Positions 31,260 to 64,000 of a DNA stretch of 64,000 nucleotides are shown here, piece after piece; position 1 is the first letter of the stretch, and each line of letters begins with the position of its first letter. The notes beneath the pieces are model-generated. The model made no database searches and had not been told where the DNA came from. It saw only the letters and a list, made by a program, of their open reading frames with translations. The DNA is from Bilabrum cf. latius (lineage: Eukaryota): assembly GCA_965178125.1 (NCBI GenBank), contig OZ237740.1, positions 310,001-374,000 on the forward strand, given 5' to 3'. The position numbers and the translations under genes are program-made.

Positions 31260-31543
31260 ATGGCTGGAGTTGCAGGAGCAACTGAAGCTGATAAGATTAA
31301 ACCTTCTGGAGACGGCAGGAAGGTGAGCGCCACTTCTCATGCGGCTGATTGGGTCGATGAATCGATTCGTGCAGACGATGGATGCGAAGCCGTCTCAATC
31401 GGTGATGCACAGTGGGAAATGATGAAAACCCGCATGGTTGGATTCAGCACTTTAGATCATGTGACTAGCATGCCGGAAGGGTACGCCTTGACCAAGGTGT
31501 GCAAATACCATGAGGACGAGCTCGAGGTTTTCGATACTTCGTC
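31260..31543 (+). pseudogene. Gene B copy 3, truncated by virophage insertion
   Basis: Matches gene B up to ...LEVFDTSS, then switches abruptly to a C-run and AT-rich DNA. Confidence 0.9.
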
Positions 31544-31750
31544 CCCCCCCCGCTACGGTAATAAATAAATTTATTCCCTTCGGTTAAGGATGATTAACAT
31601 CATCAATAATTACGTTCAGTCAGAGCTAAAGCTCTTCCCTCTCTCCATTCCTTTTCTCGCTAGTCGCTCCAAAAGTCAAGGTGAGCCTCTTCATACTGCT
31701 ACTTCATATAACTGCTTTATCCTTCTAATTATATAAAATCAATTAAATAT

Positions 31751-31900
31751 AAAACTCTATACGATGACCATATCCACAAATTGCGTATTAGTATATGTAT
31801 TATTTAGCAAAACGTGGATGTAGCCCTCTTGTGAAGGTGTTATGGGACTCTAGCCATTTTCTAGCCAAAAGTTCCATCACTTTATGGGACTCCATTATTC
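31751..31900. repeat. Dispersed intergenic hairpin module, copy 1 (others ~33350-33530, ~43485-43670, inverted ~47990-48146)
   Basis: ATCCACAAATTGCGTA...TAGCAAAACGTGGAT imperfect inverted repeat with conserved flanks. Confidence 0.85.
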
Positions 31901-32561
31901 AACCTTCTAAACTACCTTCATTATACCCCCTTATCCTCGCTTATACCTTCACAAATGGAACAAACGCGTGGATTATGGTTGATGGGTAAAACTCTAAGGC
32001 TACCCCCTTGAAATGGCATTTAAGGGCTGAAGTAGTAATTTAAATATTATTTTGAGGGTCATAATAGCATCTAAATATATAAATATGTGTATAATTATAA
32101 ATATATGGCGTAGAATGATAAAATGAGGTAGTAATTGATACTTTCCAAAGTAGGTTCATACTTTCCAAAGTATCTTCATACTTTTTGAAGTATGGCACAA
32201 AATCGCAATAGTGGCTTTAATGGACAACTGAAATTGAATATGAATATTTAGATTCATCATTTAATATTAAATGTGGCTCTTTAACCGGATGACATTGAAT
32301 ATGAATAATCAAGTTCACATTTGATTTGAACCTGAATATTGGAATTCACGATTTCTTAGGAAATATGAGGGTCTAACCAACAGGATTTAATATTAAATTG
32401 TAAGCCTTTATTAAGGGTGTATATGCTTAGGATATTACTTTATATAATAATCAATATAATTTTCACCATCCACCAGCGGTTATTTTGTGGGTTAATCCAT
32501 CAACTGGATGACAGACGGGCGTTTTTTTAAAACTCAAAAATTATAACTTAGTATTATAGAT

Positions 32562-33332
32562 ATGAACTTTAATAATTATGTCATTGAAAATCCTGTCCTA
32601 ATGAAGCAGATTTATAAGGCTACAGACCATATTACAGATAGTACGCAAAAAATTTTAGAGACCATTACTACGTATGTAGATTTAGGTGGTAAGTTTTCAA
32701 AACCAAAATTAATTAATAAAAATATAGTTAGTGATATTAAAGAGAAAAAAGCCGTGATAAAACCCAAGAAAGAAGAGAAACAGAAGACACAACACGATAA
32801 TAACGACCAGCTTGAAATTAACCAAACATACATTCTAGATAAATTTAATGACTATAAACCACAGAATAATAAAATTTATAACGATGTAGATGATTTACAA
32901 CCGCCAGAATTAATTAGATAGACCGCAATAGATGAAAAATTAACCGGTATGGAGCCTGACAGTGAAAGTGAAATAAACAGCGTTAGTACCGAACAAGACT
33001 AGATAGAAGCAGAAACTGATGATGAAATGATACCTGAGGAAGAGAAAAAAATAATTGGAGACCTAGAAAGGCTAGAAGACGGAGACTATAGGTATAAAGT
33101 GTCCGTAAATGGAAATGATGTATTTTTTGGTGAAATTAATTTACCCGATGTAGAGGCTCTTAAGAAATAGTTTAGCCCTCGTAAATTACAAATTATGATT
33201 TGTAAAATTAAAAGAAATTTTAATATTAATAATAGCGATGATATAAACAGCCCTGAGTTTTGGAATAGCCGTGTATATTTGACCCTTGATGTGAAGGCCG
33301 AACACGAAAAACTACAAGATATCTATAATTAA
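32562..33332 (+). CDS. Hypothetical virophage protein, 256 aa, acidic central region
   Basis: Open through three TAG to TAA 33330-33332. Confidence 0.7.
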
Positions 33333-33695
33333 AAGCCCCTACAACTTAATAAACGGGCTAGAATTTAATAAAATATTTTAATATAACCGCTATATTAAAA
33401 TCTATACGATAGCTATATCCACAAATTGCGTATAATTATATAGTATTTCTAGCAAAATGTGGATGTAGGGCCTCTTGTGAAGGTGGTATGGGACCTTTAG
33501 ATAATTTTTAAAAATAGTTCCATCACTTGAGAAGGTGTTAAAATACACCATTCATATCTCAATCTATTTTCTAGGGCTAAATGGCAAAAATCACCTTTCA
33601 CCTTCATTAATTATTATAGCCCCTTTAAGCCCTCTATAATTAAATATGGCGTTTAAAATAGTTTAAAAATATATTTCTAATAATATATATAGAAA

Positions 33696-62273: not shown

Positions 62274-62334
62274 TGTCTGTTATACTATACACTCCGTTTT
62301 AATTTCTGATATTCCTTTCACGAAATATCAAACA

Positions 62335-62404
62335 AATGTTTTCCAATGTTTTCCAATGTTTTCCAATGTTTTCCAATGTTTTCCAATGTTTTCCAATGCT
62401 TTCC
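62335..62404. repeat. 10-bp tandem repeat (AATGTTTTCC)n between penton and MCP
   Basis: About 6-7 consecutive units. Confidence 0.9.
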
Positions 62405-62411
62405 TAAAGGA

Positions 62412-63521
62412 TTACCCGTGTCGGGAAAACTTAAATTTCACCGATGCGGAACCATGCCGAAGATATAGGGGGTGCGTCTCTCCATAGGAATCTTTCCAAT
62501 ACAAATTAAACTGTAGCGTGTCAATACTAGAAGCGTTGAGAAGATCTATGGTGTGTTCTATCTTGGGCTGATACTGGAGAACGGCCTGGTTAATCATCTG
62601 GGAATCATCTAGGACACAATCCATATCCACCAAAACACTTTCCGTGCCTCCTGTAGAACTAATGGACTAATTCGTGGAAAATCCAAAGGGAGTTTTGGCC
62701 GATACCCCCTCGCTTCTCACTGGAAGACTGCTCGTTGTGAAAACGACTCCGCGGAACACCTGGAAATGTGCTAGACTGCCCCTATCCTGGGTCATTTTGA
62801 GTCTGTAAGGGGACTAGGGTATAGTTTCCGTGTATGGGATTGGTGCGAATCCATCATCATCGTTTTCCACCAAATAGTTTGTGCCTAGGGATTTGAATAG
62901 AACGGAGGAAAACACGTCTGGGTTCGTGTCTTGGATTCGCTGGACTGGGAAACCGCTTAAAAGTTCTCCCAATGGTTCATTCAATACCAATCTGTATTTC
63001 TGGGAAGGTTGTCCTTCGTGATAGTTGGAATCCGCGAACAGGGAAAACTTTCCATCGTCATAGGTAAGCGTTGGCGTGGTTGCTACTGCTGACTAGGGAA
63101 ACTTCTCCATGGTCTCATTAAAGAGACTGACAAAGTGTTCTATCGTGTATAAATAATAGTATCTTGTAAATGCCTGGGGGGACTACCAGCTCGGCTACGG
63201 TTCTGCGATTAACTAGGGTTTCCAAATGATGGGTTGCGTTCCAATCATGCTCCCGTCCTCCACGTCTTGGATGCTGATTCTGTAGATGGTTTGGTCTGGA
63301 TTCTTGCTGGAATTTGTGGAAAGGTCTATATCTATGTGGGGAATCCATACGGGAATTGTATTGGTGGATATGGTGAATCGTTGGACGCTCAATTTGTAAT
63401 CCTCCACATTTCCGCTTAAGATTGGCTTTTTCCTCACCTCGTTGTATTGGGCGGGCTGATAGGAGTCTTCATTATTGCGTATATTTGCGTTGATGTAGAA
63501 GTAGTCAGGTTGTCTAGACAT
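62412..63521 (-). CDS. Virophage 2 minor capsid (penton), 369 aa
   Basis: YINANI..PAQYNEVR..PIL..YKLSVQRF..IPVWIP; VVFTTSSLPV; LYWKD..HPLYL..ASVKFKF. Confidence 0.88.
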
Positions 63522-63728
63522 TTACTATACTATAACTTTTTAAGAAAAGAATAAGCAAAAGAGCGGAGCGCGCTTAAGCGCGAGCATCTTGACTAAAAAC
63601 AGTGAACGGGAGGGGTTTTCAACCCTTTGGGAAATGGTCGGAAGTCTTGGGAAATGGATAGGAAACACTTGGGAATTGCTAAAAAACATTCTAAAGATAT
63701 ACTAAGTGGTTTTTCTGAAAAAGTAACT

Positions 63729-64000
63729 ATGGACTACGCCCTAAGTGATACAGATGTAAGGAATTTGTGCGGGAATCCGCCCAGAGTGAAGGGGTTCAAG
63801 GCGTGTGCCGTCTCCATTATACCATATGAGAACTTGGAAAGGGTGGAAAGCATAGATAGAATCGTTTCACCGTCCAAGCCTTGTATTTTGTTGTATTAGG
63901 AAAGTCCTAATTCAGGTCATTGGGTTGCCTTGTTTCGTCGTGGGAAAACCCTGTGTTTCTTTGACCCCTACGGCGTGAAGCCCGATATGTAGCAGACTCT
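63729..64000 (+). CDS. Virophage 2 cysteine protease, partial
   Basis: MDYALSDTD..ILLY*ESPNSGHWVAL..FFDPYGVKPD. Confidence 0.88.

Follow-up and report, generated by a model that had tools for sequence, protein, structure and literature searches.

A virophage nested within a virophage in a host gene of Bilabrum cf. latius, with TAG read as a sense codon

Results and discussion

Anatomy of the nested locus

We analyzed a 64,000-nucleotide stretch (the window) of the protist Bilabrum cf. latius (GCA_965178125.1; 48.6 Mb in 111 contigs), comprising positions 310001-374000 of contig OZ237740.1 (C6), in which a virophage, V1, lies within a host gene, B, and itself holds a second virophage, V2, and two pieces of the Ngaro type. 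Positions are those of the window; values above 64000 extend along the contig, up to 82500, and adding 310000 gives the contig coordinate. V3, V5 and V6 denote other virophage families of the same assembly, and N1 an autonomous Ngaro family. Along the window the GC content drops at 31.5 kb, from about 60% to about 30%, has a maximum at 39-41.5 kb and is about 45% from 57.3 kb onward.

The 5' part of gene B (31260-31544, +), one of four copies in a tandem A/B array and without a Pfam family, ends where V1 begins, and its 3' part restarts at 77086 (C6:387086). The halves align to residues 16-122 and 121-498 of an unbroken paralog (18735-20231), with a 5-nt overlap, and both flanks carry the target-site duplication (TSD) CGTCC (31540-31544 and 77086-77090, +). 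Between these lies V1 (31545-77085, with 31545-64000 inside the window), which measures 45,541 bp with its inserts and 24,531 bp of its own DNA, has 31% GC and C7/G6 ends, and is bounded by a left terminal inverted repeat (TIR; 31545-31968, +; 425 bp) that is 96.2% identical to the right one (76660-77085). A sequence-only reading of the window had put the cut in gene B at 31543/4; the cut is real, and it lies one base to the right, at 31544/5. The extension of the contig that this reading proposed brought in the right TIR of V1, ending at 77085, a 5-bp TSD and the continuation of gene B, while the duplications it expected near TTCGTC and ACAATT are close to those actually present, CGTCC for V1 and CAATT for V2.

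V1 encodes a Prim-Pol/PriCT-2 primase with a helicase-like region (33696-36473, +; 925 aa, 21 in-frame TAG; PF09250, E=7e-16), a major capsid protein (MCP; 44907-46796, -; 629 aa, 9 in-frame TAG), a penton or minor capsid protein (46869-47822, -; PF21507, E=5e-7, above the cut-off) and an rve integrase (54199-55356, -; PF00665, E=6e-11) with a chromodomain match below the cut-off (PF00385, E=2e-4). A probable packaging ATPase (48743-49843, -) is suggested by its Walker A motif, its place beside the capsid genes and weak matches to generic AAA/P-loop families only. The product of 48159-48734 (-) is a probable maturation cysteine protease, judged by its position and by putative catalytic H/D/Q/C motifs; it and its putative counterpart in V2 are ORFs (open reading frames) of 191 and 201 aa at the expected position, without significant Pfam or PDB matches. 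The capsid, integrase and primase frames are unbroken in this copy, and three other V1 genes are broken.

One of these is pPolB, which has 499 codons in a sister copy. Its 5' part, with motif A (41471-42363, -; PF03175, E=8e-12), and its 3' part, with motifs B and C (38379-38985, -; no Pfam match alone), are separated near codon 297 by SDR3 (38986-41470, +), an element of 2485 bp and 63% GC; as motif A (codon 226) precedes the break and motifs B (351) and C (437) follow it, neither part is a whole polymerase. SDR3 is organized by the repeats A1 (38986-39158), B1 (41039-41159), A2 (41160-41332) and B2 (41350-41470; all +), with A identical at 173/173 and B at 121/121 positions, and has a 72-bp tandem filler and no TSD. 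Its site is empty in all three sister V1 copies listed, with target bases neither duplicated nor lost. A Pfam scan and tblastn with N1 and N3 proteins revealed no tyrosine recombinase (YR) or reverse transcriptase (RT) in it. Since it combines split repeats and the lack of a TSD with no detectable RT/RNase H or YR, SDR3 is a non-autonomous Ngaro-like element and not a Ngaro proper. The label of YR element given to it earlier therefore suits its Ngaro-type ends but not its coding content. The splitting of polB is borne out by the position of the break and by the empty sister sites; as to the further proposal that V1 is inactivated unless the element is precisely excised, the disruption of pPolB is evident and the clean junction is at most compatible with the excision proposed for Cafeteria Ngaros. 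A sibling of SDR3, likewise repeat-filled, resides in a diverged V1-like element (C14:261467-264865).

The second Ngaro-type piece is a 181-bp mini insert (51127-51307, +/-2; +) with an AT core and no TSD, which consists of the N1 A-repeat and the last bases of B. It is identical to the A2 repeat of N1 at 178/178 positions, shares the AT junction core of N1 and is missing from the same site in the four sister copies listed (4/4); the likeliest interpretation is an AB remnant of N1 from which nearly all of B would have been lost. The small ORF at this site (50779-51159, +; 129 aa in a sister copy) had been described as split; more precisely, the insertion replaces its 3' end, about 13 codons.

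V2 (57315-75653, with 57315-64000 inside the window) comprises 18,339 bp at 45% GC with G8/C8 ends and lies in the DUF285-repeat gene of V1, whose 3' part (56664-57314, -; PF03382, E=7e-54) and 5', N-terminal part (75919-75659, -) stand on its two sides. The flanks carry the TSD CAATT (57310-57314 and 75654-75658, +), and an unbroken gene with a single CAATT is found in a sister V1 copy (C22:791231-792238; 336 aa), so that the truncation at 57314/5 noted from the window alone proves exact to the base. The left TIR of V2 (57315-57900, +), about 600 bp with 20-bp repeats, is 99.8% identical to the right TIR over its first 452 bp. The core frames are uninterrupted: an MCP (60504-62273, -; 589 aa, 4 in-frame TAG; PF21915, E=8e-23; PF22031, E=5e-25; both above the cut-off), a penton (62412-63521, -; PF21507, E=8e-13, above the cut-off), the probable maturation protease (63654-64259, +, running past the window end; no Pfam match) and, beyond the window, a probable packaging ATPase (64334-65245; Walker A, generic AAA/P-loop matches only), pPolB (70153-71997), an SF3-type helicase (72051-73862) and an rve integrase (73947-75026).

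Affinities of the two virophages

The MCPs of V1 and V2 are only 23% identical over 294 columns and hence belong to different lineages, as had been proposed. The best PDB match of the V1 MCP is mavirus (6g45, E=1e-7) and that of the V2 MCP is Sputnik (3j26, E=2.5e-26); these are best matches only, and we assign neither V1 to Maviroviridae nor V2 to Sputniviroviridae. The V1 MCP matches PF22031 below the cut-off (E=0.0035), three of its four best relatives scanned also match this family, and its identity to full-length relatives is at most 32% (among 55 matches). Scans of IMG/VR with both MCPs and a word-index protein search with that of V1 gave no match. The family closest to V2 is V3, with 59% MCP identity. 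With respect to the traits of virophages (Maveriviricetes), V2 and, more weakly, V1 have a virophage-like MCP and both have a penton; the sizes, 24.5 kb for the own DNA of V1 and 18.3 kb for V2, fall in the 15-45 kb dsDNA range that is expected but not required of the group (PMC9952930). Most viral ATGs are preceded by AT-rich, TATA-like stretches.

The window copy of V1 is probably immobile on its own, because its pPolB is split and it is 1.9 times its own length. A TIR motif of about 140 bp recurs in V1 at 80-85% identity near 31750-31890, 33390-33530, 43530-43670 and 47950-48090 (intergenic; approximate) and is possibly a regulatory element or an origin.

The surrounding host DNA (1-31544 and 77086-82500) is a tandem array of genes A (about 751 aa) and B (about 490 aa), of no known family, with 70-bp repeats between them, and this array collects many insertions. 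Split-direct-repeat elements without a YR or RT match occur at 6152-10920 and 22901-29910; they are filled with 39-bp tandem repeats, joined in the second by a 115-bp unit repeated 33 times, and the second splits a gene A copy near codon 188. An RT-bearing element (14958-17904, -; PF00078, E=2e-11) has a 96% copy flanking the sister V1 on C22.

TAG is a sense codon in the viruses and the host

Read by the standard code, the viral stretch yields only short ORFs, but with TAG as sense and TAA and TGA as stops it resolves into long tiled ORFs, a feature on which the sequence-only reading was silent. The standard code and table 4 were rejected since they fragment the viral ORFs, and table 6 since it reads through true TAA stops. 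The frames contain 81 in-frame TAGs in 12 V1 ORFs and 62 in 10 V2 ORFs, all of which end in TAA or TGA. When TAG positions of the window are compared with sister copies, 23 of 38 substitutions are to CAA/CAG, 8 to AAA/AAG and 2 to TTG. TAG makes up 30-41% of Gln codons in V1, V2, V3 and V5. By contrast V6, which encloses V2 on C9, has no TAG against 87 CAA/CAG in 8 ORFs; its loci are C9:349800-384500 and C30:686500-691800 (no TAG against 44 CAA/CAG at the latter), and as its genes stop at TAA or TGA it is readable under both codes.

The host offers a nuclear tRNA with the anticodon CTA (C23:907607-907679; 73 nt), whose D arm resembles host tRNA-Gln and whose acceptor stem resembles tRNA-Tyr. 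A long variable arm, as would be expected in a tRNA-Leu, is missing. Among host proteins, PDH E1-alpha has TAG at a Gln column, and three of six aligned differences between host paralogs are CAG/TAG swaps. The host eRF1 (L152:1510-1902) has a TAG at position 69, where homologs have Leu in two of three cases and Gln in one, and BiP has one where both aligned homologs show Leu. Position 69 of eRF1 has been tied to UAG recognition (PMC5304391). A calpain-like host ORF with 8 TAGs has none within its aligned stretch, and a pelota-like locus also returned by the PF03463 search was not used. TAG is thus a sense codon in both host and viruses; that it stands for Gln we hold with high confidence for the viruses and with moderate confidence for the host.

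In two public proteins, P0002 (13/13 aligned) and P0001 (3/4), TAG agrees with Gln, but this was not counted as evidence, since a TAG=Gln table may already have been used to predict them, which would make the argument circular. The public P0001 cluster (70% identity to the V2 MCP) is informative in another way: 2 of its 11 members end immediately ahead of a residue that is Gln in the full-length form, and 6 comprise a C-terminal fragment only. This pattern suggests that recoded relatives of the virophages exist in public metagenomes. Separately, contig C111 bears clustered tRNAs, including one with a TCA anticodon, which suggests that it is a mitochondrial contig with TGA=Trp.

Frequency of nesting, recombination and gene exchange

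By its ends, V1 is represented by at least 21 elements, most of them 25-28 kb; this TIR search scored 40 of 95 candidates, and the counts are a lower bound. We put the total at about 65 virophage elements, or about 3% of the genome by our own estimate. At least one flank was examined for 42 elements (21 V1, 17 V3 and 4 V2, the last being all copies in the assembly), amounting to 40 independent sites, 7 of which lie inside another viral element: V2 in V1 (window), V2 in V6 (C9), V3 in V1 (C30), V3 in V1 (C12 and C4, one shared site), V1 in V3 (C22), V1 in V5 (C6 and C2, one shared site) and V1 in an AT-rich element with a D5-like helicase (C9). V2 at C30 is ambiguous and was scored as not nested. 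The excess has P=2e-4 if the target is 3% of the genome and 0.009 at 6%; with P rising with target size, targeting and tolerance are inseparable for virophages.

The pattern is sharper for the Ngaro N1 (C12:283659-289082; 5.4 kb), which has split repeats, an RT/RNase H-like ORF (RVT_3, E=6e-6; RNase H weak) and a YR ORF (PF00589, E=1.5e-4, below the cut-off). Copies were taken as YR matches of at least 94%, with one split match merged, and placed by TIR-pair coordinates or flanking sequence; of the 26 so defined, 24 fall within viral or AT-rich sequence; host DNA holds a single, degenerate copy, and the setting of the remaining one is ambiguous. This excess holds alike at targets of 3%, 6% and 10%. 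In our reading, resident AT-rich viral DNA acts as a sink, strongly for N1 and moderately for other virophages, whether through targeting or tolerance. Further Ngaro-type families reside inside V1 (C30:633654-640134, C4:1236346-1240837 and C12:321732-330521), among them a non-autonomous one with a 285-bp tandem filler and an autonomous one of 8.8 kb. The reverse arrangement, V3 within an N1 Ngaro, is seen at C14:1089700-1111500, and a 3.6-kb miniature V3, mostly its two ends, at C41:392333-395970.

Nesting had been thought to open a route for gene exchange between V1 and V2. This is not supported: V1 has no nucleotide similarity at E<1e-8 to pieces of V2, V3, V5 or V6, a resemblance (72-81%) exists only between V2 and V3, and such recombination as is seen joins copies of the same family. 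Within V1 it is frequent, for the nearest neighbor of a V1 copy shifts from block to block. Copies of V1 also vary in a segment inside the left TIR (32519 region; C6:725600-727300) and in the DUF285 region, with gaps and 72-88% identity, and some have ORFs at variable positions that are GIY-YIG-like by their motif (C4:1263914-1264666, C30:646031-646720).

Two loci are instructive in this respect. At C12 (297151-314493) and C4 (1242361-1259606) V3 has entered the V1 capsid gene at one identical 5-bp site, with opposite orientations at the two loci. The local V1 haplotypes are near-identical, and the host flanks and outer TSDs differ; the two V1 copies diverge by 1.2-2.3 per kb around and to the right of the V3 site and by 7-13 per kb to its left. 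The simplest reading is a single V3 insertion spread by recombination, the alternatives being movement of the compound element or misassembly. At C6:698600-749200 and C2:77000-130000 V1 sits at the same site of V5 with only one host flank shared, which points to ectopic recombination or a misjoin.

Origin of the locus and alternative explanations

We explain the locus by sequential genuine insertions into a protist chromosome recoded at TAG, most likely to Gln, first of V1 and then of V2 and the two Ngaro-type pieces, and give this a probability of roughly 0.8. The order proposed earlier, with gene B enclosing V1 and V1 enclosing the other three, accords with the TIRs and TSDs at both ends of both viruses and with the empty alleles. 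No other V1 copy in the alignments shares any of the three inserts at its position; this uniqueness and the repeat identities (V1 TIRs 96.2%, V2 TIRs 99.8%, SDR3 100%, mini insert 100% to N1) fit an arrival of V1 before its inserts. Moreover, 5-bp TSDs flank the other fully retrieved V1, V2 and V3 copies listed, except for the V2-like copy on C15. Judging from what is known of rve integrases and YR retroelements, V1 would have integrated into one gene-B copy through a 5-bp staggered cut, and the unrelated V2 would later have entered the DUF285 gene of V1 in the same manner. SDR3 and the mini insert, the latter from the active family N1, would have joined the integrated V1 without TSDs, presumably as circles and with a tyrosine recombinase supplied in trans by autonomous Ngaros.

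Several observations count against this explanation. TIR divergence is only a rough clock, because TIRs recombine. No autonomous partner with the ends of SDR3 turned up (7 matches). At BiP and eRF1, two of the three conserved host positions with TAG, homologs most often have Leu. The nesting excess loses significance (P=0.10, 10% target) should insertion be tolerated in no more than about a third of the host DNA. Copies of V1 and V3 that are mosaic, together with the half-shared C6/C2 locus, indicate recombination or local misjoins elsewhere in the assembly. Finally, in a read check of the region 40800-58500, for which 4 of 8 runs were aligned as assembled contigs only and some runs may be from the source sample, none of the pieces listed bridges 57314/5 or 41470/1 with the insert, 853 further pieces lying outside that set; the same runs have the empty form at the mini-insert site in 4/4 and at the SDR3 site in 3/4, as expected from the sister copies.

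That missing bridge, the many near-identical copies and the common flank of the C6/C2 pair are what a chimera of separate viral contigs might produce. Yet at every insert the flanking parts add up to a gene for which an unbroken paralog exists, and either a 5-bp duplication or a clean break marks the two ends of the insert; matching TSDs 18 and 45 kb apart together with empty alleles are not expected of chance or of a simple chimeric join, so that a chimera is highly improbable. We give scarcely more credence to the idea that the in-frame TAGs are marks of pseudogenes or encode Leu: the Leu residues at the BiP and eRF1 sites favor the latter, but the 22 viral ORFs hold 143 TAGs and not one internal TAA or TGA, exchanges with CAA/CAG far outnumber those with TTG (23/38 against 2), and both the variable arm of the CTA tRNA and the paralog swaps count against the idea as well.

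Two other possibilities concern how V2 came to lie in V1 and are less remote. V2 may have entered an episomal V1 during co-infection, the compound then integrating whole, and the shared V3 site at C12 and C4, with its different host flanks and outer TSDs and closely similar haplotypes, lends this some plausibility. However, the V1-V2 compound of the window is unique among the copies aligned, with 45.5 kb it stands at the top limit of the virophage size range, and the divergence left of the C12/C4 site, with an inverted and mosaic V3, fits recombination of integrated copies; we regard this course as unlikely. Somewhat less so, though still doubtful, is an integrase of V2 that actively targets resident virophage DNA, which would make nesting a form of interference between virophages in place of a passive sink. 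Two of the four V2 copies are indeed inside virophages (window and C9), C30 is ambiguous and the one copy in host DNA is the diverged one on C15. Against this, the sample is four copies, 13 of the 17 insertions of V3, the closest family, are in host DNA, and tolerance of insertions accounts for part of the excess.

Implications of the recoding

Beyond the locus, and with little more than an even chance in our estimate, the sequential insertions in a recoded chromosome may belong to a wider picture: a protist hosting several virophage lineages that adopted a TAG-only reassignment, in which nested compounds spread by recombination, with recoded relatives in metagenomes and one TAG-free resident. 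If this is true, the recoded virophages, with about a third of their Gln codons written as TAG, would be translatable only in hosts with the same code, and any helper giant virus would need, at a minimum, to cope with it, while the TAG-free V6 would be a candidate for a recent immigrant or a host-range generalist. TAG use offers a measure of how old the tie of each virophage lineage to the host is, and the code indicates a place to look for a giant virus that infects a variant-code host; all giant-virus isolates are stated to come from standard-code hosts (PMC13524828). There is also a practical side, in that recoded viruses look decayed or are missed because standard gene calling fragments them. 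We consider the TAG code the more useful part of the finding, ahead of the nesting.

Comparison with known systems

The endogenous mavirus-like elements (EMALEs) of Cafeteria burkhardae mostly have 3-5-bp TSDs, include insertions in host exons and leave solo AB repeats (Hackl 2021, PMC8547959). About a quarter of them contain Ngaros, whose occurrence in EMALEs the sequence-only reading had noted; one lies in pPolB, and 91% of type 1 Ngaros are in viral DNA (PMC8547959); excision of Ngaros on reactivation has been proposed there (Koslova 2024, PMC10945749). The elements of Bilabrum are similar in being AT-rich, TIR-bound virophages with rve integrase and pPolB in a GC-rich host, accompanied by Ngaros of the form A1-ORFs-B1A2B2 that favor viral DNA. 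They differ in virophage-in-virophage nesting and in Sputnik-type MCP matches (V2 and V3), neither of which occurs in the EMALE material compared, as well as in the non-autonomous, repeat-filled SDR3, in a mini insert reduced to A with almost no B, and in the use of TAG as sense.

A preprint on Halocafeteria seosinensis describes dozens of complete elements of several subtypes, 9 virophages and 5 polinton-like viruses nested in viral elements, with one three-layer case, and proposes gene exchange (bioRxiv 10.64898/2026.07.28.741278). Virus-in-virus nesting and the multiplicity of virophage subtypes are common to both hosts. In contrast, H. seosinensis has Mutator-like elements (MULEs) and long interspersed nuclear elements (LINEs) instead of Ngaros, and cross-lineage exchange was not detected in Bilabrum; the terms 'genetic code' and 'stop codon' are absent from the main text of the preprint. 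The Russian-doll nesting, the hit in polB and the caveat about excision are therefore already known from the Cafeteria and Halocafeteria literature, to which Bilabrum contributes a third host in which the nesting is cleanly resolved, supported by TSDs, empty alleles and counts.

With regard to the code, the endogenous viral elements of Streblomastix strix (PMC10120064) and a code-6 giant virus known as a metagenome-assembled genome (PMC13524828) have genes that follow the reassigned stops of the host, which is taken as a sign of long association. In those cases both TAA and TAG are reassigned, whereas here it is TAG only, beside a TAG-free virophage; furthermore, the S. strix elements belong to a Metamonada MCP group (PMC10120064), as opposed to the virophage-type MCPs found here. 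The literature searched, with subscription journals outside its coverage, returned no report of TAG-only reassignment in virophages. Nuclear codes with UAG=Gln are on record for Iotanema spirale (PMC5304391) and for phyllopharyngean ciliates (PMC11687900), and there UAG is likewise sense, UAA and UGA are stops and a CUA-anticodon tRNA was predicted; in Bilabrum, by way of difference, a gene for such a tRNA is present. Set against these systems, what is new in Bilabrum is the TAG-sense code together with the non-autonomous Ngaro forms, and not the nesting.

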